Assembly (NCBI GenBank): GCA_011371305.1
Contig: DRQW01000165.1
Span: 1 to 37,764, forward strand
Length of the DNA: 37,764 nucleotides
Direction of reading: 5' to 3'
DNA from: Anaerolineae bacterium
Lineage (GTDB): Bacteria; Chloroflexota; Anaerolineae; J102
Part shown: piece after piece, positions 1-37,764 of the stretch
Position numbering within the stretch: position 1 is the first letter of the stretch
Layout of the letters: every line of letters starts with the position of its first letter
Made by a program: the position numbers and the translations under genes
Notes under the pieces: model-generated
Database searches by the model: none
What the model was told of the DNA's origin: nothing
Seen by the model: only the letters and a program-made list of their open reading frames with translations

Positions 1-244
1 CGGGAAACCGGTAGACCGGTAGACCGGGGTGAGCGAATCGGCCCGGTTTCCCTGGTTTCCTGGTTTCCAGGTGTACCGGGTTACCGCCCACGATTTTCGT
101 CCGTATCGGCGCTGGCAAGCCAGCCGTTGGACTGCTTTGAAAATACATGTCTCACGCCAAGGCGCCAAGGGCGCAAAGGAAATTAGGTGGCGATTTTCAT
201 CGGTATCGGCGCGCGGCCGCGCGTGGTGCCTGTTCTCAAAATCG
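1..244. repeat. Mosaic palindromic repeat, truncated by window start: octamer palindrome (1-80), hairpin module M (93-144), nonamer array (153-179), module M variant (191-244)
   Basis: GGGAAACC/GGTAGACC octamers are followed by GGTTTCCC/GGTTTCCT octamers, and 1-144 aligns with 22696-22850. 191-244 is bounded by CGATTTT...AAAATCG. Confidence 0.85.
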
Positions 245-3290: not shown

Positions 3291-3380
3291 GCGTAATCCG
3301 TATTCCGTATTGCGTGGCGATCGAACGGAATACGAAATACGCAATGCGAACTTTGTCACCTCGCCCCACATTGGCTTGGA
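3291..3380. repeat. Heptamer palindrome (CGTATTC/CGTATTG ... GAATACG/AAATACG) with conserved right flank
   Basis: Tandem heptamers on both arms in inverted orientation; flank CTCGCCCCACATTGGCTT resembles 30694-30711. Confidence 0.8.
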
Positions 3381-3410
3381 GTCGCTCTCACGAACTAGCC
3401 CAACGACATC

Positions 3411-4227: not shown

Positions 4228-4346
4228 CTCACGCAGAGACGCTAAGTCGCCAAGGGACTAGGGTTTGCTGGTGGCAGGTGAACGACTTCCTGCCAGAAGC
4301 CCTTGCCACTTGCGACTTGCAAACCTGCTTAGCGGCTTGGCGTGAG
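4228..4346. repeat. Nested palindrome: outer nonamer arms around inner GCAGGTG/CACTTGC-type heptamer arms
   Basis: Ends CTCACGC...GCGTGAG; the inner part is an inverted homologue of 34167-34245. Confidence 0.8.
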
Positions 4347-6078: not shown

Positions 6079-7449
6079 ATGAAATCTACGCTATTCAAAC
6101 TCACCCTCTTCCTTTTGCTTATCGTCATGCTGGCGGGATGTGCGCAAAAGCCTGCAGATACGCAAGCGCCCGCCCAAAAACCCGCGGCCACCCAGGCACC
6201 TGCCCAAGAGAAGCCCACCGAGGCCCCCAAAGAGATGGCCACCGAGGCTCCTAAGGCCGAGGAAATGGCCCCTGTTACCCTGACCGTGTGGTCGTGGCGC
6301 ACTGAGGACGAGGATGCTTACAACGAGATCTTCGATGTGTATGAACAAGCGCATCCCAACGTCACCGTGGAATTCGTGCCTTTCGTCGCGACCGATTACA
6401 ATAACATTCTGGCTACGGGCCTCACGGGTGAAGGTGGGCCCGATGTGGTTCAGCTTCGCGCCTATGGCGGCTTGCAGCCCCTGGTGGAAGCGGGCCAGCT
6501 TTTGCCTCTGGACGGAAAAGTGAAAACCCTGTCCAACTTCTCGCCCGATCTGCTCAAGGGTGCCATGGGCGTCAAAGATGGGCATATCTACGGTGTGCCT
6601 TTTGGCATCCAAACCCTGGCCGCCTATTACAACAAGGGCATCTTCGAGAAGCTGGGCCTGAGTGAGCCCACCACCTGGGATGAATTCATCAATGTTCTGG
6701 AGACGCTGAAGAAAGAAGGTTACATCCCCATCGCGGCCCCGGCCAAAGACACCTGGATGCTGCCCATCATCCACGACACCGTAGGCGCGCCTCGCTATGG
6801 CGGGCCGGAATTCGAAAAGAAAATCCTGGCTGGCGAGACCGACTTCACCGATCCTAACTACGTCGCTTCCATCCAACTGGTGAAGGACCTGCAGCCCTAC
6901 ATGCCCGATAACGTGGTCGGCGTGAGCTATCAGGATGCTCGCACCCTCTTCCTCACCGAGCGAGCCGGCCTCTTCCTCGGCGGCTCCTTCGAGGTAGGCT
7001 ATTGGCGTAACGAGGGGCCTGAGCTGGACATCGGCATCTTCCGGGTGCCCCCGGCCCCCGATTCCGTCCTCGACCATCCGCTGACCCCTGGCTGGATGGA
7101 TGGATCCTACGGCGTCAATGCCAACAGCGACGCCAAGGAAGAAGCCATCAAGCTAGTGGAATGGATGGGCACCAAGGAATTCGGGCAAATGTTCACCGAG
7201 AAGATCAAGCAGCTTTCGCCCGTGCCAGGCACCGAACCCAAGGACCCGGTTCTGGCTCAGTTCGCCAAGTTCTATGAAGAAACGCCCGCGTCCTACATGC
7301 TGTTGGTGGATTTCCGCTATGGTGATCCTTCCGGCACAACCTTGATGGGCAATGGCATCCAGAAGATGCTGCTTGGCGAAATGACCGCGGAAGAGGTTGC
7401 CCAAAGCCTGCAAGAGGGCATCTCCCAGTGGTTCAAACCCAAACAATAA
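6079..7449 (+). CDS. Carbohydrate ABC transporter substrate-binding lipoprotein (CUT1)
   Basis: AGGAG SD; lipobox MLAGC; Pro/Ala/Glu/Thr-rich linker; GPDVV, YGVP, YYNK and PTTWDEF motifs. Confidence 0.93.
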   Translation: MKSTLFKLTLFLLLIVMLAGCAQKPADTQAPAQKPAATQAPAQEKPTEAPKEMATEAPKAEEMAPVTLTVWSWRTEDEDAYNEIFDVYEQAHPNVTVEFVPFVATDYNNILATGLTGEGGPDVVQLRAYGGLQPLVEAGQLLPLDGKVKTLSNFSPDLLKGAMGVKDGHIYGVPFGIQTLAAYYNKGIFEKLGLSEPTTWDEFINVLETLKKEGYIPIAAPAKDTWMLPIIHDTVGAPRYGGPEFEKKILAGETDFTDPNYVASIQLVKDLQPYMPDNVVGVSYQDARTLFLTERAGLFLGGSFEVGYWRNEGPELDIGIFRVPPAPDSVLDHPLTPGWMDGSYGVNANSDAKEEAIKLVEWMGTKEFGQMFTEKIKQLSPVPGTEPKDPVLAQFAKFYEETPASYMLLVDFRYGDPSGTTLMGNGIQKMLLGEMTAEEVAQSLQEGISQWFKPKQ

Positions 7450-12667: not shown

Positions 12668-12808
12668 CAATTGCAGATATCTTCGCCCCGTTGTGGGCGA
12701 CCGGGGGAAGTCCGGTGAAAATCCGGCGCTGTCCCGCAACTGTGAGAGCTTCGGCTCAAGCCAGATCGCCCGGCACAGGCGCAGCTTTCTGCGAGGCACA
12801 GAGGCTGC
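12668..12808 (+). ncRNA. Cobalamin riboswitch (short form)
   Basis: GGGAAGTCCGGTGAAAATCCGGCGCTGTCCCGCAACTGTGA core and AGCCAGA B12-box half, directly upstream of cob genes. Boundaries approximate. Confidence 0.92.
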
Positions 12809-12830
12809 GAACGTTTCCTTTGCCCGACAT

Positions 12831-13972: not shown

Positions 13973-14001
13973 CAATTGTACCTCGACGCTGATTACGAAA
14001 C

Positions 14002-14170
14002 GGTCATCAGCGTCCACGTTAGGCGAAGCGCTAACGGGCGTAAAACGTGATGCGTGAGACGTGAGGGGCTCATGCATCACCCATTGCGCATCACGAAATC
14101 GGCTGATGACCATATAGCCGCAAGTCATTCTCATCGGTAACGGCGAGTCAGCGCTCGTGTCGCCTGCCGA
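14002..14170. repeat. Heptamer palindrome element with 10-bp terminal inverted repeats (14002-14111) plus a module M copy (14127-14170)
   Basis: GGTCATCAGC...GCTGATGACC ends; the interior aligns with 22879-22969; 14127-14170 aligns with 193-232. Confidence 0.8.
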
Positions 14171-20749: not shown

Positions 20750-20812
20750 GGCGTGAGACGTGATGCGTGAAACGTAAGGACTTTACCGCATCACGCATCA
20801 CGTTTCACGTCG
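20750..20812. repeat. Heptamer palindrome (CGTGAGA/CGTGATG/CGTGAAA ... CATCACG/TTTCACG)
   Basis: Same units as 22912-22969; lies between convergent genes. Confidence 0.85.
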
Positions 20813-22485: not shown

Positions 22486-22665
22486 GGGGAAGTCAGTGAG
22501 TTTGCGCCTAAGGCTGCACCTTCGGGCTTTGGATTATCAAGCCTCTTCGGATCTATTTCAATAGCTTATTGTATCACATCCTGGCGACGGTTTTTATTCC
22601 AAATTTTTTCCCAAATATCCCAAATTTTATCCCAAATCATGGAACGGGTGCTTGGTCCGGTTGAG

Positions 22666-23002
22666 GCCTGCTTTGAAAATAGATTTCGGTAGACCGGGAA
22701 ACCGGGTAGACCAGTAGACCGGGTGGAGGAGCGAATCGGCCCGGTTTCCCTGGTTTCCGGGTTTCCTGGTTTACCGGTTACGGGGCTGCACAGCCCGCCA
22801 TTTTCATCCGTATCGGCGCAGGCGAGCCTGCCATCGGACTGCTATGAAAACAGGATTCGGATCAGGATTAGGATTGAAGTCGTCAGGATAACGTTGAGCG
22901 AGGCGCCAACGGGCGTGAAACGTGATGCGTGAAACGTGAGGACTTACGCATCACGCATGACGCATTACGGCGTCGGCTTCCTCCGCCACCTTGGCCGCAA
23001 GG
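22666..23002 (+). repeat. Mosaic repeat copy A (~335 bp): octamer palindrome, small hairpin, module M, AGGATT hexamers, heptamer palindrome
   Basis: Colinear and highly similar to the reverse complement of 37381-37708; the 5' part also matches 1-144. Confidence 0.92.
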
Positions 23003-23095
23003 TGGGCAGGTGGCAGGTCAAATGGCGCAATCCACCTGCCACCTGCCACTTGCAAACTTGCAAACCTGACTTGGCACCTTGACGCCTTGGCGTGC
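22994..23095. repeat. GCAGGTG/CACCTGC/CACTTGC heptamer palindrome followed by a nonamer arm
   Basis: Same architecture as 4228-4346. The nonamer arm 23070-23094 is the near reverse complement of 153-179. Confidence 0.8.
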
Positions 23096-29197: not shown

Positions 29198-29280
29198 TGT
29201 GAAACGTGATGCGTAATGCGTAAGGTTTTCACGTTTCACGTTTTCACGCATCACGTGGCTTGCCGCCACCCCCAAGGTTG
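29198..29280. repeat. Heptamer palindrome (CGTGATG/CGTAATG ... TTTCACG/CATCACG) with GGCTTGCCGCCACC flank
   Basis: Same units as copies A and B; the flank resembles 22975-22990. Confidence 0.82.
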
Positions 29281-29325: not shown

Positions 29326-29847
29326 ATGCACCGCTTTGCCAACGACCATCCCAACATCACCGGCGTGGTCCTCGCCCTCGTCCTGTTCGGCGCCTTGATC
29401 CTGACCGGGGTCACTTTCTTCCTGCCCGAAATCGCCAGCGCCCTGAATATCGGCCCTGCGCCCGACCGCTCCTGGACGCCGGCCGTGACGCCCACGCCCA
29501 CCTTCACCCCCACCCCCTCACTCCCGCCCGTCACCCCCACTCCCACCATCAACCTGCCACCTGACTTGCCCACGCCCCCGCCCGGTCAGTGGACCTTCCA
29601 GCCGGGGGACGTGGCGGTGAACGTGAACAACGGGCCCGTCAATCTGCGCAAAACCCCGGGCTACAAAGGCAAACCGCCCAGCGACCGCATCGCCCTGGTG
29701 CCCGCGGGCGCAAGGGTGCGCATCCTCCACGGCCCCGCCCTGGCCGATGACCTGGTGTGGTGGTATGTGGACTGGAACGGGCGTCGAGGCTGGATGGCCG
29801 AAACCCGGGCCAGTGGCGTGCCCATGTTAAAAAAGACTCAAGATTAA
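29326..29847 (+). CDS. Membrane-anchored protein with a Pro/Thr linker and a bacterial SH3 domain
   Basis: N-terminal TM helix, TPTPT linker and VNLRKTPG...ILHGP...WWYV...GWMAE. Confidence 0.85.
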   Translation: MHRFANDHPNITGVVLALVLFGALILTGVTFFLPEIASALNIGPAPDRSWTPAVTPTPTFTPTPSLPPVTPTPTINLPPDLPTPPPGQWTFQPGDVAVNVNNGPVNLRKTPGYKGKPPSDRIALVPAGARVRILHGPALADDLVWWYVDWNGRRGWMAETRASGVPMLKKTQD

Positions 29848-29897
29848 AGACTAAAGACCGTCGATTACTGCTCACTGATTACTGACGAGGAGCCCTT

Positions 29898-30572
29898 ATG
29901 CCCGTCGAAACCCTTTCTCCATCCCTCACCCTCACCGAATCGGGCCTGTTGCTTTTGCCAGGCCATGCCCCCTTGCAAACCATCGTCGAGGCAGAAAACG
30001 CCCCCGCCCTGCTGAAACAGGTCCTGAAACGCAGCTATACCTGGCAGGAGCGCAACGACGTCAGCATTCGACAGGCCGCGCTCTCGCCCGACCGCGGGCC
30101 CCTTTGGGCCGCGGCGCTCATGGCCTGGGACGCCCAGGCCCTGTTCGAAGGGGGTGACACCGTTCCCTATGTGGCTTATTTCCGTCGCACGGCCCGCGGC
30201 CAGGGCCGCATGACCGGGTTACTCATCCCGCCCGAGGCCGACAACCGGCGCTGGGGCGTGGCCGAAGTCGCGCGCACCAAGCGCGACACGCCCATCGTGG
30301 CCGCGGTAGCCGTGGTCGATTTCGATGGCCATCGGGTGACCGCGGCCCGGGTGGCCCTGACGGGCGCCTGGAAACGCACCGCGGACCTGGCCCAGGCCCC
30401 CGCCCGGCTGGCGGGCCAGCCCCTCACGCCCGAAGCCATCGACGCGGTGGCCCAAGCCATCGCCGCCGAAGCCGATCCCCGGCCCAACTTCCTGGGCTCG
30501 GTCGCATACCGCCGGGCCATGGCCGAGGTGTTGAGCCGGGACGCGCTGCTGAAGTGTTTGAAATCAAACTAG
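29898..30572 (+). CDS. Truncated/divergent FAD-subunit homologue of xanthine dehydrogenase-family enzymes (YgfM/CoxM-like)
   Basis: C-terminal ARVALTG and NFLGSVAYRRAMAEVL motifs; GAGGAG SD; directly upstream of the Mo subunit. Confidence 0.75.
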   Translation: MPVETLSPSLTLTESGLLLLPGHAPLQTIVEAENAPALLKQVLKRSYTWQERNDVSIRQAALSPDRGPLWAAALMAWDAQALFEGGDTVPYVAYFRRTARGQGRMTGLLIPPEADNRRWGVAEVARTKRDTPIVAAVAVVDFDGHRVTAARVALTGAWKRTADLAQAPARLAGQPLTPEAIDAVAQAIAAEADPRPNFLGSVAYRRAMAEVLSRDALLKCLKSN

Positions 30573-30592
30573 TGATTGCCAAAATCGAAGCT

Positions 30593-30719
30593 GGCGCGGG
30601 AAGCCGATCTCATATTCCGTATTGCGTATTGCGTATTCCGTATTGCGTGACGGCTGGACGGAATACGCAATACGAAGTACGCATCATTGCAGACTCGCCC
30701 AACCTTGGCTTTGATGACC
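30593..30719. repeat. Heptamer palindrome (CGTATTG/CGTATTC ... GAATACG/CAATACG) inside the shared scaffold
   Basis: Left flank GGCGCGGGAAGCCGA is identical to 37396-37410; the right flank resembles 37481-37505. Confidence 0.85.
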
Positions 30720-30760
30720 TTCTGCGACCAGCGATCATTTTTCATAACAGGAGATCATCC

Positions 30761-33679
30761 ATGCGTGGCACTCCCACCCAAATCACCCTCACCGTCAACG
30801 GCCAGCAGCAGACCTGGACCGTAGGACAACGCGATTCCCTGGCTCAGGCCCTGCGCGACCATCAACTTTACAGCGTCAAACTCGGTTGCGATACCGGCGA
30901 CTGCGGCATCTGCACCGTGTTGGTGGATGGGAACCCTGTGCGCAGTTGCATGGTGCGGGCCGTCGAGGTGGATGGCAAGGAGGTATTCACCACCGAAGGC
31001 CTGGCCCAGGGCGGCGAACTTCATCCTATCCAGCAGGCGTTCATCGAAGTAGGCGCGGCCCAATGCGGCTTCTGCACCCCGGGCATTCTCATGGCCACCA
31101 AAGCCCTCCTCGACCGCAATCCCAATCCCACCGCGGAGGAGGTGCGCGAGGCCACGGCCGGGGTTTACTGCCGCTGCACGGGCTATGTGCGCACCACCCA
31201 CGGCGTGCTGCAGGCCGCGAAGAAACTGCGCGGGGAGGAGACCGGGCCGCTGCAACCCATCCGCTTCAAACTCACCGACGAAGACAGCATCGACGACATC
31301 GAGCTGCCCGAGCCCTTCCATCGTCGGGATAACGACGTGCACCCCCTGCCGCCGGTGGTCATCACCCCGCCCGACATGCCGGAGACCACGGTCGTGGGCG
31401 CGCCCGAGATCAAGGTGGACGCGCGCAAGCTCATCCTCGGGCGGCCTGTGTACGCCTTCGACAAATACGTGGAAGGCATGCTCTACGGCGCCATCCTCAC
31501 CAGCCCCCACGCCCACGCCCGCATCCTCGATATCGACACCAGCGAGGCCGAAGCGTTGCCCGGCGTCCATGCCGTTCTCACCTACAAAAACGTGCCCCGG
31601 GTCAAACACGCCACCGGCGGCCAGAGCCCGCCCCAGCCACCGCCCTACGACCAGGTCATGTTCGACAACAAGGTGCGGCATGTAGGCGATCGGGTGGCTG
31701 CCGTGGCCGCAGAAACACCCGAACTGGCCAAAAAAGCCCTGCGCCTGATCAAGGTCCAATACGAAGTGCTGCCCCACGTCATCGACCCGATGGAGGCCAT
31801 GCAGCCGGGCGCGCCCGTCATCCACGATGAAGATGACACCGTGGGCATCTACGATCCCCAGCGCAACATCGTCCATCACATCGAAGCCGAGGTGGGCGAT
31901 GTGGACGCGGCCTTCGCCGAGGCCGACTTTATCTACGAAGGCGAATACTACACGCCCAAACAACAGCACGCCCACCTGGAACCCCACGTCACCATCACCT
32001 GGTGGGACGAGAACGACCGCCTGGTCATCTATACCTCCACCCAGGTGCCCTTCCACCTGCGCCGCATCGTCGCACCCCTCATCGGCATCGATCCCAAGCG
32101 AATTCGCGTGATCAAACCGCGCACGGGCGGCGGCTTTGGCAACAAGCAGGAAATGATCCTGGAGGATGTGTGCGCCATGCTCACCGTGCGCACCGGTCGT
32201 CCCGTGCGTCTCGAATTCACCCGCACCGACGAGTTTTATTCCACCCGCAGCGCCCATCCCAACATCGTGCGCTACAAAGTGGGCGTGAAGGGCGACATCG
32301 TCACCGCGGCCGAACTCTACCTGGTGGGCGACACGGGCGCGTACGGCACCCACGGCCTCACCGTGCAGATGGTGGGCGGCCTCAAGGGCCTGTCGCTTTA
32401 CAATCCCCCCAACGCCCGCTTCATCTCCGACGTGGTCTATACCAACCAGCCGCCCACAGGCGCATTCCGCGGCTACGGCGCCACCCAGGCCCAGTTCGGC
32501 TTCGAGGTGATCATGGAGGAGATCGCGGAAAAGCTGGGCCTGGATGTGGTCGAATTCAAGGGCAAGAACGTGCTCAAAGTCGGGGAGCCCATGCATCTGG
32601 CCGAGAAGCTGGGCGAGGGCCGGGAAGGCTATCCCCAGGATCTGACCACCAGCGCCCTGGCCGAATGCACCCGCATCGGGCTGGAGGCCACCGATTTCTA
32701 TGCCAAGCGCAAAGCCTACGCCAAACAGACGGGCCGCTACCGCAAGGGCATCGGCTTCGCCAACACCATGCACGGGTCCGGCATCGCGGGCCTGGACATG
32801 GCCGCGGCCACCATCAAGATGTGGGATGACGGCACCTTCTTCCTCACCGTAGGCGCCACCGACATCGGCACCGGCTCCGACACCATCCTCGCCCAGATCG
32901 CGGCCGAAGTCCTGGGCGTCCCCCTGGCAGATATCGTCATCTATTCCTCTGACACCGACTTCACGCCCTACGACACGGGCGCGTACGCCAGCTCCACCAC
33001 CTACATCAGCGGCGGCGCGGTGCGCAAGGCCGCGCTCAAGGTGCGCCAGCAGATTTTGGAGTTCGCCGCGCTCATGTGGGAGCTGGATTCCACCGAGGGC
33101 CTGGAGCTGCGGGACCGCAAGGTCATCGCGCCCGATGGCCGCGAGCTCACCCTGTGGGACATCGGCATGACCAGCACCCACCAGATGGAGCAGCGCCAGA
33201 TCATGGCCACGGCCTCCCACATGAGCTACGTCAGCCCGCCCCCCGCGGCCGCGTCCTTCGCCGAGGTCACGGTGGATACCTGGACCGGCCAGGTGACGGT
33301 GGACCGCTTCTTCGTGGCCGCGGACATCGGCCGGGTGATCAATCCGGTGACGGCCGCGGGCCAGATCGAAGGGGGTGTGCTCCAGGCCATGGGTTTTGTC
33401 ATGGCCGAAGAAATGGTATTCGACGAGAAGGGAAGGCTGGTCAACGCCAACCTCAAGGACTATCATCCCTATCTGGCGGATGAAGCGCCTCCCATCGATG
33501 TGGTGTTCGTGGAGACCAACGAGGGCACCGGTCCCTTCGGCGCCAAATCGGTGGCCGAGCTGGCCATGGACGGCGCCGCGCCCGCGATCGTCAGCGCGGT
33601 GCACAACGCCACGGGCGTGTGGGTGCGCAAGCTGCCCCTCTATCCCGAGCGGGTGTGGAGGGCGATTCAGGGCGAATAA
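30761..33679 (+). CDS. Xanthine dehydrogenase-family molybdoenzyme with fused 2x[2Fe-2S] and Mo-binding subunit (XdhD-like)
   Basis: GCDTGDCGIC, QCGFCTPG, CRCTGY, GGGFGNK, AFRGYG, GQIEGG and GAKSVAE motifs; AGGAG SD before ATG 30761. Confidence 0.93.
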   Translation: MRGTPTQITLTVNGQQQTWTVGQRDSLAQALRDHQLYSVKLGCDTGDCGICTVLVDGNPVRSCMVRAVEVDGKEVFTTEGLAQGGELHPIQQAFIEVGAAQCGFCTPGILMATKALLDRNPNPTAEEVREATAGVYCRCTGYVRTTHGVLQAAKKLRGEETGPLQPIRFKLTDEDSIDDIELPEPFHRRDNDVHPLPPVVITPPDMPETTVVGAPEIKVDARKLILGRPVYAFDKYVEGMLYGAILTSPHAHARILDIDTSEAEALPGVHAVLTYKNVPRVKHATGGQSPPQPPPYDQVMFDNKVRHVGDRVAAVAAETPELAKKALRLIKVQYEVLPHVIDPMEAMQPGAPVIHDEDDTVGIYDPQRNIVHHIEAEVGDVDAAFAEADFIYEGEYYTPKQQHAHLEPHVTITWWDENDRLVIYTSTQVPFHLRRIVAPLIGIDPKRIRVIKPRTGGGFGNKQEMILEDVCAMLTVRTGRPVRLEFTRTDEFYSTRSAHPNIVRYKVGVKGDIVTAAELYLVGDTGAYGTHGLTVQMVGGLKGLSLYNPPNARFISDVVYTNQPPTGAFRGYGATQAQFGFEVIMEEIAEKLGLDVVEFKGKNVLKVGEPMHLAEKLGEGREGYPQDLTTSALAECTRIGLEATDFYAKRKAYAKQTGRYRKGIGFANTMHGSGIAGLDMAAATIKMWDDGTFFLTVGATDIGTGSDTILAQIAAEVLGVPLADIVIYSSDTDFTPYDTGAYASSTTYISGGAVRKAALKVRQQILEFAALMWELDSTEGLELRDRKVIAPDGRELTLWDIGMTSTHQMEQRQIMATASHMSYVSPPPAAASFAEVTVDTWTGQVTVDRFFVAADIGRVINPVTAAGQIEGGVLQAMGFVMAEEMVFDEKGRLVNANLKDYHPYLADEAPPIDVVFVETNEGTGPFGAKSVAELAMDGAAPAIVSAVHNATGVWVRKLPLYPERVWRAIQGE

Positions 33680-33730
33680 GCCCTCTGATTCTTCCCACAA
33701 ACCGAAAAACGATCTTGTATCCTCTCTCGC

Positions 33731-33850
33731 TTGACCGACTTTACGCCCGAATACCGCCTGCGTGTGGGCGATTACCGCATCCTCTTCGAAGTTGAGGAAG
33801 ACCAAATCGTGATTTATCGTGTTCGCCATCGCAAGGATGTATACCGGTAG
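33731..33850 (+). pseudogene. C-terminal fragment of a RelE/StbE-family toxin
   Basis: Manual translation [39 protein letters not shown]; the N-terminal half is missing. Confidence 0.85.
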
Positions 33851-33898: not shown

Positions 33899-34095
33899 GT
33901 GATCGATATCAAACCTCAATAAAAAAGAAGGGCGCAAGGAATTTGTGATTTTGACCTACGAAGATTTTTTGAAGGTCCAACAGGCACTGGAAGATTACGA
34001 AGACCTGAAAGCTTTGCGCGAAGCAAAAAGAAGCAGAAAAAGACGCCCCTACCACCTCCCATGAAGAACTGAAGGCCTTGTTTGGCATGGAGTAA
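33899..34095 (+). pseudogene. Frameshifted type II antitoxin
   Basis: Reconstructs as MIDIKPQ / KKEGRKEFVILTYEDFLKVQQALEDYEDLKALREAK / EAEKDAPTTSHEELKALFGME*, with frame breaks near 33920 and 34029. Confidence 0.75.
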
Positions 34096-34136: not shown

Positions 34137-34277
34137 GCCACGAAGGCTCAAAGGAACGAAGCCAATGCAGGTTTGCAAGTCGCAAGTGACAAGGCAAGTT
34201 CTTCTGACGGCGACGTTTTTCCCCTGCCACTTGCCACCTGCCACTTCTCTCCTTCGTGTCGTCCTGTCTTCGTGGTT
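34137..34277. repeat. Nested palindrome: nonamer outer arms (CCACGAAG...CTTCGTGG) and GCAAGT/ACTTGC-type heptamer inner arms
   Basis: The inner part is an inverted homologue of 4263-4328; the outer arms differ in sequence from the 4228-4346 copy but still pair. Confidence 0.82.
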
Positions 34278-34379: not shown

Positions 34380-34649
34380 ATGACGATTGAAAAAATCCTT
34401 GCAGATATCCATGCTTTGGAAGAAGAGCTCTTGGCCTTCGAACGAAAATACGGTATTCGTTCGGAAACTTTCTATGCCGCTTACATGAGTGGTGAAGAGC
34501 CTGAAGACGAAAGTTGGGTGCTGGATTTTGGTGAATGGGCCAGCGTCTACCGCACTTGGCTGGCGCGCCAGGCGGATTATCGCAATGAAATCCAGCGGTT
34601 ACAGCGGAACTCAACCAGCATCAAAGGATTGATTCGGGTTGCAGCATGA
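34380..34649 (+). CDS. Small acidic protein, probable antitoxin (TumA-like partner of DUF6516)
   Basis: AAGGAG SD; L..FERKYG..SETFY....SG.....DFGEW pattern; ATGA overlap with the next gene; TATAAT at 34326-34331. Confidence 0.75.
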   Translation: MTIEKILADIHALEEELLAFERKYGIRSETFYAAYMSGEEPEDESWVLDFGEWASVYRTWLARQADYRNEIQRLQRNSTSIKGLIRVAA

Positions 34650-35083
34650 ATCCGTTAGCTAGGCCCGAAGATTATGAACTGTTTTTATATACGTTGACGG
34701 AGCGATATCCCTCGATTCAGCGCTCGACTGTGATTTTTGTTCGCAGGGGCGCAACGTTGGCGCGAGTGTCAGGCGAACTGGTATTTGACCACGGCTTTCG
34801 ATTAGTGATTCGTGAACGTCTGGTATTCCATCGATTACCCGGTGTGATAGACTGGTATGGTTATGAGATCTGGCGCGGAAACGAAAAACTATGCTGGTAC
34901 GACCCACAACCTCATCCCGACGATCCACACTTGCAAGCCACACATCCCCATCATAAACATATTCGGCCAAATATCAAACATAATCGCATTCCCGCGCCAG
35001 AAATGAGTTTTCATCGACCGAACATCCCTTTTCTTATCGAGGAAATCGAACAGCTGATAGCTTCCCCCTCAATGCTGAAATAA
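34646..35083 (+). CDS. DUF6516-like (TumE-type) putative toxin
   Basis: YGYE...WYDPQPH...THPHHKH motif; two-gene TA-like layout. Family recognised from memory, not by search. Confidence 0.78.
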   Translation: MNPLARPEDYELFLYTLTERYPSIQRSTVIFVRRGATLARVSGELVFDHGFRLVIRERLVFHRLPGVIDWYGYEIWRGNEKLCWYDPQPHPDDPHLQATHPHHKHIRPNIKHNRIPAPEMSFHRPNIPFLIEEIEQLIASPSMLK

Positions 35084-37311: not shown

Positions 37312-37340
37312 TTGTCAGGCCACGCGGGGACAGGTATAAT
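37312..37340 (+). promoter_or_regulatory. Sigma70-type promoter firing into mosaic repeat copy B
   Basis: TTGTCA (37312-37317), 17 bp, TATAAT (37335-37340). Confidence 0.75.
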
Positions 37341-37380
37341 GGCAAGGGATACGAGACGGCTCGCTGATGCCGATGACCAC

Positions 37381-37708
37381 GCCTCGCGCCACGTGGGCGC
37401 GGGAAGCCGACGCCGTAATGCGTCATGCGTGATGCGTAAGTCCTCACGTTTCACGCATCACGTGTCACGCCCGTTGGCGCCTCGCTCAACGTTGTCCTGA
37501 CGACCTCCATCCTAATCCTGATCCGAATCCTATTTTCATAGCAGTCCAACGGCGGGCCACCCCGTGCCGATACGGATAAAAATGGCGGGCTGTGCAGCCC
37601 CGTAACCGGTAAACCAGGAAACCCGGAAACCAGGGAAACCGGGCCAATCTGCTCCCCCTCCCGGTCTACCGGCCTACTGGTTTCCCGGTCTACCAATTTC
37701 AAAGCAGG
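37381..37708 (-). repeat. Mosaic repeat copy B (inverted relative to copy A)
   Basis: Reverse complement aligns with 22666-23002 across all modules. Confidence 0.92.
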
Positions 37709-37717
37709 AGCACATCC

Positions 37718-37764
37718 ATGTCCCCCAAACCCCTCTCCGACTATCCCCGTCCCCCAGAGGATAA
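37718..37764 (+). CDS. 5' end of a CDS running off the window (MSPKPLSDYPRPPED...)
   Basis: AGGAG SD at 37706-37710 and an open frame to the window end; only 15 codons visible. Confidence 0.6.
   Translation, partial: MSPKPLSDYPRPPED

Follow-up and report, generated by a model that had tools for sequence, protein, structure and literature searches.

The window, by which we mean the whole stretch of 37,764 nt analysed here, has a G+C content of 60% and an ordinary chromosomal gene content, including ABC transporters, a cobalamin salvage cluster, sucCD, a DEAD-box helicase, ComEC, CoxM, a fused CoxS/L and a GH57 enzyme. An AdoCbl riboswitch (12688-12812; 59.6 bits, E=1.2e-8) stands ahead of the salvage cluster, cobT-cobS-cbiZ-cobD. 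Between the stop codon of the CoxM-like gene (30570-30572) and the ATG of CoxS/L (30761-30763) lies a palindromic repeat, element A (30590-30720). Self-BLAST and Tandem Repeats Finder, the latter calling period 7 at every copy, located seven such copies (A to G) built from heptads that start with CGT. All seven copies in the 37.8 kb are intergenic, five are flanked by co-directional gene pairs, and most are housed in apparent operons such as cobT-cobS and the ABC transporter genes. The heptamers showed no enrichment in coding DNA, and an uptake-sequence-like role was rejected on this ground. Elsewhere in the window, a 24-nt repeat lies within a solute-binding protein gene (6203-6255). By our reading of the translations, the stretches 33689-33850, 33903-34064 and 34380-35083 together hold what looks like a remnant (the C-terminal part) of a RelE/ParE-like toxin, a fragment resembling an antitoxin, and after these a small ORF and a TumE-domain ORF. 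The copies and the composites that contain two of them are as follows.

30590-30607, forward strand: left module of element A, GCTGGCGCGGGAAGCCGA, which includes the shared 15-mer
30618-30681, forward strand: type II hairpin of element A, with five left units (30618-30652), a central G and four right units (30654-30681)
30682-30720, forward strand: right flank of element A in its type II version, TTGCAGACTCGCCCAACCTTGGCTTTGATGACC
37396-37505, forward strand: element B, with the 15-mer at 37396-37410, eight contiguous type I heptads at 37414-37469 and the right flank at 37470-37505
3292-3385, forward strand: element C, type II and lacking the 15-mer, with its hairpin at 3292-3341 and right flank at 3345-3385
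14001-14104, reverse strand: element D, type I, with its hairpin at 14039-14095 and right flank at 14001-14043, inverted relative to the flanking genes
Within 22667-22995, reverse strand: element E, type I, with a variant 15-mer at 22973-22987, core at 22914-22969 and right flank at 22878-22913
20752-20809, no strand assigned: element F, type I and frameless, between the convergent sucD and an unnamed ORF (fold z=-6.1)
29199-29257, no strand assigned: element G, type I and frameless, a hairpin only
37388-37708, forward strand: composite containing element B, with the type I hairpin, a hexamer run, the hairpin module H3 (37527-37594), a small GC hairpin, an octamer-array hairpin (37604-37700) and TTTCAAAGCAGG
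22667-22995, reverse strand: inverted duplicate of this composite, holding element E (89% identity over 329 bp)

Each element is an imperfect hairpin of ~55-65 nt whose arms are made of 3-5 tandem CGT-R-W-W-R heptads, followed by a right flank of ~35 nt; a separate left module precedes the hairpin in some copies only. Fold z-scores range from -1.7 to -6.1 over the copies, with -4.46 for a 141-nt fold of element A. The left arm of A reads CGTATTG twice, CGTATTC and CGTATTG, and its right arm GAATACG, CAATACG and AAGTACG. Element B carries CGTAATG, CGTCATG, CGTGATG and CGTAAGT on the left and CCTCACG, TTTCACG, CATCACG and TGTCACG on the right. The observation from which this work started, a sequence-only reading in which one copy has CGTATTG/CGTATTC arrays, the other has CGTAATG/CGTCATG/CGTGATG arrays and the heptad changes on both arms together, is thus confirmed.

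Copies in other genomes were sought with a core-anchored pattern (G, three CGT-N4 units, a gap of 5-35 and three ACG-N4 units), which recovers five of the seven window copies vs. three by a flank-anchored pattern. Over the genome collection it returned at least 127 loci, and the source genome is not among the matches listed. One of them, L023, is a contig from a related Anaerolineae MAG and carries two further hairpins, L23a and L23b, so that the subfamily analysis below rests on nine copies, seven from the window and two from L023. The spacing of CGT/ACG every 7 nt, which the sequence-only reading had also pointed out, is present in all nine and in every unit of the framed copies.

The exact 15-mer GGCGCGGGAAGCCGA is indeed found at both 30593-30607 and 37396-37410, as had been claimed. 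When the left flanks (60 nt each) of the four independent framed copies were dinucleotide-shuffled 500 times, their longest common exact word had a mean of 7.2 and a maximum of 12, against the 15 observed, and short-word BLAST in 5.7 kb of intergenic DNA gave the 15-mer E=7.9e-4. The 14-mer at 30590-30603 also occurs exactly in L023 (281-294), and element E holds a copy with two mismatches (22973-22987, reverse strand). Overall, the 15-mer is exact in 2/7 window copies; E and L23b carry variants of it with two mismatches or an indel, and C, D, F, G and L23a lack it. On this distribution the left 15-mer appears to behave as a separate, optional mosaic module.

The right flank has a wider distribution. 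The strings compared in A and B (30694-30719 and 37481-37505) align with a Smith-Waterman score of 22 relative to a shuffle null of 12.2±2.1 with a maximum of 23. The related right flanks proposed at ~3345-3385 (forward) and 14001-14043 (reverse) proved real, with scores of 27 for A-C, 32 for B-D and 20 for A-D; B-C and C-D scored 17 and 11. In a MAFFT alignment of the six framed copies the right flank aligns in 6/6, with a conserved block TTG-N4-CTCGC-N3-AC-N-T-N-G. Folds had suggested that the two flanks form a lower stem, an idea that was dropped: left-right duplex energies were no better than those of shuffles (z -1.1 to +1.1). Since the flanks lack mutual pairing, the frame is not a structural scaffold.

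Unit by unit, the nine copies separate into two types, with A, C and L23a forming type II and B, E, D, F, G and L23b forming type I. Type II units are CGTATTG and CGTATTC, the apical region is CGT-RRCG ... ACGGAATACG, and the right flank contains CTCGCCC-M-AC-M-TTGGCTT. Type I units are CGTGATG, CGTAATG and CGTGAAA, with the apex CGTAAG...TCACG and a right flank ACGCCCGTT-RK-CGC-Y-TCGC-YY-AACGT that is missing in F and G. The heptads of the two types are only 1-2 substitutions apart (CGTATTG, CGTAATG, CGTGATG). Right-flank similarity tracks the core type, with scores of 27 and 32 within types vs. 22, 20, 17 and 11 between them. Because the apical loop and the version of the right flank are both type-specific, right flank, loop and arms diverged together and the core was not swapped. 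The phrase "same scaffold, different heptamer" therefore stands in part. There is a homologous frame around two heptad cores, but that frame varies with the core type. It is not fixed, as its right flank follows the core, the 15-mer is exact in only two window copies and F and G are frameless. Nor is the core exchangeable, since each type has its own loop and flank version, which makes these two diverged subfamilies. The phrase is descriptively true and probably reflects shared descent and module shuffling rather than an exchangeable core.

The arms are coupled, as predicted: in the six-sequence alignment 90.8% of cells pair vs. 81.6±1.7 in shuffles, and nine cells have a change on both sides, a number reached by 0/500 shuffles. 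Compensatory columns appear in A and C (63/92, GC to AU; 64/91, AU to UA). In essence, a single event, the split between the types, accounts for this covariation. The arms of type I are imperfect, and most copies share the same imperfection, with ATG at the end of the left units and GA at the start of the reverse-complemented right units, which fits descent from a master copy and not a continual perfecting of the arms. Unit numbers are equal in B, E and L23b, where the single indel is of 1 nt and lies in the loop. On the left arm A exceeds L23a by one unit, and both arms of C have a smaller number of units, these being comparisons among copies.

Elements of this kind also form part of larger mosaics. 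The composite with B and the one with E (22667-22995 vs. 37708-37388) stand in unrelated gene contexts at 89% identity. A mosaic upstream of glnA in L023 is 82-89% identical to the composite with its modules reordered, and contains both flanks, a hairpin of type I, H3 in two copies and a hairpin of type II that is truncated by the contig end. The order of left module, hairpin, right flank, hexamer run, H3 and octamer hairpin differs between B/E, L023 and window positions 1-145. The ends of the composite are not mutual inverted repeats, and a search of a plasmid collection with 37380-37720 gave no match. The modules in our list cover 1,812 of the 5,199 nt of intergenic DNA in the window, and H3 together with other palindromic arrays of period 7/8 without CGT fills much of the remaining spacer DNA.

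H3 is itself a hairpin of ~60 nt (ATTTTC-R-TCCGTATCGGCGC, an inner GC hairpin, then CCGTTGGACTGCT-W-TGAAAATA) found at 83-147, 182-245, 22789-22856 and 37527-37594 (reverse strand), and at 89-155 and 298-361 of L023. It alternates with heptad hairpins in the mosaics, its inner stem shows a few compensatory changes, and a weak H3-like module adjoins element D (14116-14167, forward strand). Palindromic arrays with a period of ~8 and units of the GGTAGACC and GGTTTCC type, without CGT, occur in three copies (1-86, 22688-22780 and 37604-37700).

Outside L023, the heptads were found without the frame. A right-flank profile matched five window copies and L023 and none of the other 126 loci listed at E<1, and short-word BLAST of all flanks had the same outcome, leaving those 126 loci unmatched. 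The frame is lineage-specific because both searches match only the window copies and L023 among the loci listed. The heptads are nevertheless there at these 126 loci, and what persists from one genome to the next is the heptad family rather than the frame. The 127 matches listed include 59 from Chloroflexota, 16 from Nitrospirota and seven from Acidobacteriota, assigned by title with five genera checked; as they describe the matches listed, these shares are only indicative. The CGT-R-W-W-R heptad is common to the Chloroflexota loci listed, with A/G at position 4 (89%), A/T at position 5 (83%), T/A at position 6 (86%) and G/A at position 7 (83%); in the other phyla among the matches listed, positions 4-7 are near uniform. 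Among the matches listed, the commonest Chloroflexota four-base tails are ATTG, GATG, GAAA, GTTG, AAAA and AATG, and the two core types of the window are the two commonest Chloroflexota heptads.

In 61 Chloroflexota elements, arms resemble their own partner far more closely than arms swapped in from other elements (520 vs. 362±18). Nitrospirota arms do not (own 96 vs. swapped 106±7.6), and arrays such as L025, L110, L112 and L117 keep CGT at intervals of 7 nt while the 4-nt fillers differ widely (GAAG, ATCT, CGTT). Outside the anchors their two sides lack complementarity, so the Nitrospirota arrays are not simple hairpins. The order of unit variants is not mirrored between the arms above the null over all 88 elements (717 vs. 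704±9 with order permuted) and only marginally so in Chloroflexota (520 vs. 505±6.7). In the outward unit of the 126 loci listed, CGT of the left arm is kept at 0.57-0.67 vs. 0.48-0.57 at other positions, and ACG of the right arm at 0.71-0.81 vs. 0.51-0.67; support for CGT as a specially conserved anchor is weak, and the estimate is biased because the search pattern forced CGT. Of 52 period-7/14 arrays lying in the flanks outside the pattern, 22 contain CGT/ACG and several others are inverted pairs of other heptads.

Gene context at these loci was taken from Pfam-supported ORFs. Raw ORFs, which placed 37/68 loci seemingly inside a long ORF, were discarded as unreliable because the DNA is GC-rich. 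A Pfam scan of 130 flanking ORFs at 34 Chloroflexota loci supported genes on both sides at 18, and 16 of these are co-directional (two weakly supported), one is convergent and one divergent. Of the 31 gene 3′ ends that face Chloroflexota arrays, 18 lie within 15 nt of the array, and in 15 the stop codon T-R-R occupies positions 3-5 of the first heptad (p=6.4e-6; Pfam-supported upstream genes). Loci with this register include L004, L030, L041, L045, L046, L050 and L074; at L041 the hairpin takes up all of the spacer between the stop codon of dnaX and the ribosome-binding site of ybaB. Elements A, C and F of the window are outside the register. In a Thermoflexia MAG, a sucD-like gene has a heptad hairpin behind it (L046, 1001-1063), just as F (20752-20809) follows sucD with different heptads; the shared position is probably a coincidence because the elements are so dense.

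The element is best read as resembling REP/BIME, with arms like cyanobacterial STRR arrays and a putative function. REP/BIME of Proteobacteria are dense intergenic imperfect palindromes, often in operons and in both orientations, with a REP hairpin of 20-40 nt. The repeat described here likewise consists of non-coding imperfect palindromes, as do REPINs, that are dense in intergenic DNA, often lie in operons and occur in both orientations. As in BIMEs, palindromes combine with other short motifs in varying mosaics, and there are several subfamilies in one genome. It differs from REP in its longer hairpin (~55-65 nt), its arms of tandem heptads and its Chloroflexota-like host. REPs carry GTAG or CGTC tags according to PMC3733652. 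Here, in contrast, a GTAG/CTAC tag is found in 0/7 copies and CGTC/GACG only at inconsistent positions, and no transposase or RAYT-like gene was seen among the 29 window ORFs or the 130 flanking ORFs of the listed Chloroflexota loci. MITEs are also small, non-autonomous dispersed elements that fold as hairpins, but the present elements show no separate terminal inverted repeats, no known parent insertion sequence and no target-site duplication, with flank direct repeats not above shuffles in 5/6 copies and B as the sole exception (9 of 500 shuffles). Integron attC sites and CRISPR were rejected on reading the sequence, which has ordinary operon genes and no spacers, and Rfam returned no family (best mir-2574, at 26.8-30.7 bits vs. 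a gathering score of 90).

Cyanobacterial STRR are intergenic heptanucleotide simple repeats, and reports of heptamer repeats in bacterial intergenic DNA go back to 1990. The present arrays share with STRR-like repeats the tandem 7-nt units confined to intergenic DNA and the unassigned function. They differ in being only 3-5 units long, in always having an inverted partner array, in their heptad, and in lying inside a conserved, dispersed, flanked element with a unit number that is stable between copies. Published examples include the intergenic TAACTGA heptanucleotide repeats of Beggiatoaceae (PMC4679880), the GGGAATC repeats of Xanthomonas, which occasionally form inverted pairs able to make stem-loops (PMC4692102), and the GATAGRA satellites of Chloroflexus (PMC6749651); general repeat surveys are also available (PMC4060949). 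According to a paper of 2015, intergenic heptamer repeats had not been covered in any detail in the literature (PMC4692102). Our literature search found no published description of this element, and within the accessible text of the sources doubled heptads were not encountered and Chloroflexota were linked to palindromic arrays nowhere beyond the satellite note in PMC6749651. The window offers a clear case of heptad arrays that are not loose simple repeats but build the arms of a mosaic hairpin, conserved and dispersed, with recognisable subfamilies. Several of the matches listed sit at contig ends, and such repeats may break or confuse MAG assemblies.

The data show that the frame is homologous between copies, that there are two subfamilies, that the elements are dispersed and mosaic, that they can fold as hairpins and that they are located between co-directional genes. 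We consider it probable that A (30590-30720) and B (37396-37505) represent two sister subfamilies of one dispersed palindromic repeat, a non-coding mosaic element specific to the lineage. Both subfamilies would derive from one ancestral element in which one unit changed by 1-2 bases and the change spread to all units on both arms, possibly when a master copy re-amplified its units in tandem and copied them in inverted orientation. New intergenic sites would then have received copies of entire elements, either alone or in mosaics of ~300 bp with other palindromic modules. Against this account stand the small number of copies (nine), the negative results given above for a transposase gene, a target-site duplication and a GTAG tag, and the exact 15-mer, which crosses the subfamily boundary and is unexpected under simple co-divergence; we would attribute this last point to mosaic recombination. 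With respect to function, a tentative suggestion by analogy with REP is that the repeat is co-transcribed with its neighbours and that its RNA hairpin could act as a barrier to 3′ exonucleases or as a processing or pause point between cistrons. Selection at the RNA level, sought through strand asymmetry of folding, was not seen: window copies have no consistent preference, and in 30 Chloroflexota loci the sense strand relative to gene direction folds better in 16 and worse in 14 (Wilcoxon p=0.61).

The heptad family spans Chloroflexota classes, often in the stop-codon register, which hints at constraint beyond purely selfish spread. It is conceivable, if unlikely, that the CGT-R-W-W-R palindrome is a Chloroflexota-wide cis-element read in its 7-nt register by a conserved factor. 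A protein that binds heptads or an enzyme specific for hairpins could be the reader; the element, often built onto the upstream stop codon, would set cistron separation through termination, mRNA end formation or re-initiation, and the frames of the window would be lineage-specific additions to an old functional core. The recurrence of the heptad, the co-directional placement and the stop codon in the first heptad raise questions about operon punctuation in a poorly studied phylum. The model proposed in the sequence-only reading has a fixed frame recognised by a cellular machine that reads structure and 7-nt periodicity while the core is exchanged or kept uniform. An identical 15-mer beside two different cores, CGT/ACG in every unit of the framed copies and co-varying arms would all be expected from such a machine, but the right flank that diverges with the core type, the separate loop of each type, the two frameless copies of seven, the exact 15-mer in 2/7, the unpaired flanks and the absence of a detectable frame at the other 126 listed loci with the same heptads leave this model quite improbable.

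The arrays could also be double-stranded DNA platforms for a protein that polymerises with one dimer per heptad, serving as operators or as nucleoid or segregation sites. The analogy is Omega/ParB of pSM19035, a ribbon-helix-helix protein on WATCACW heptads; it binds 7-10 contiguous 7-bp repeats, direct or inverted, and at least 4 are needed (PMC9499535). Element B, with eight contiguous in-phase heptads, four each way, would suit such a protein, type I units such as CATCACG contain its ATCAC core, the Nitrospirota arrays are symmetric only at the CGT anchors and not in the four bases between, and the heptad consensus is Chloroflexota-wide among the matches listed. We nevertheless give this analogy little credence. 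Unlike Omega operators, the elements have many chromosomal copies, no identified cognate protein or candidate binding gene, and no fixed relation to promoters (promoter-like sites lie upstream at A and B, downstream at E and nowhere at C and D); moreover, the extra central base in A breaks the phase, and the anchor triplet is barely better kept than the rest of the unit (the left-arm values above, from the 126 loci listed). Growth in place, in which 7-nt replication slippage seeded at a stop codon fills the spacer to the ribosome-binding site and flank likeness is merely local sequence, would agree with the stop-codon register, with L041 and with reports that, in many bacteria, heptanucleotides lead the over-representation among long simple repeats, for which polymerase slippage has been proposed (PMC4679880; PMC4692102). 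It is hard to reconcile, though, with a composite duplicated at 89% in unrelated contexts and present again in another genome, with the equal heptad number of B, E and L23b, or with A, C and F lying off the register, and it seems improbable to us. The same low standing applies to transcription terminators or attenuators: the hairpins are long, stable and at gene ends, and F, between convergent genes, is followed by GGTTTTTC, with a T-run 8 nt after its stem, but a scan of A, B, C, D and E found no stem followed by a T-run, and most copies lie inside apparent operons, where full termination would silence the downstream genes.

Several further repeats share the intergenic DNA of the window with the dispersed palindromic element. 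A partly palindromic heptad family of CCACCTG and CTTGCAA/CTTGCCA units is present at 23000-23095, 34160-34250 and 4271-4328. AAAGACT and GATTACT arrays lie at 29832-29885, the latter related to a GTGATCA-type array in L023 (360-397). A 12-nt AT-rich repeat of the TTTTATCCCAAA type is located upstream of an epimerase gene (22592-22637). The ribosome-binding regions of two unrelated genes are similar (TTTCATAACAGGAGATCATCCATG at 30737-30763 and TTTCAAAGCAGGAGCACATCCATG at 37696-37721), and both resemble the start of H3 on the opposite strand. Just after the GH57 gene there is a strong sigma-70-like site (37312-37340; TTGTCA, 17 nt, TATAAT; 11/12), and if it is used as a promoter, the whole ~320-nt composite with B would lie inside a ~370-nt 5′ leader of the next gene.
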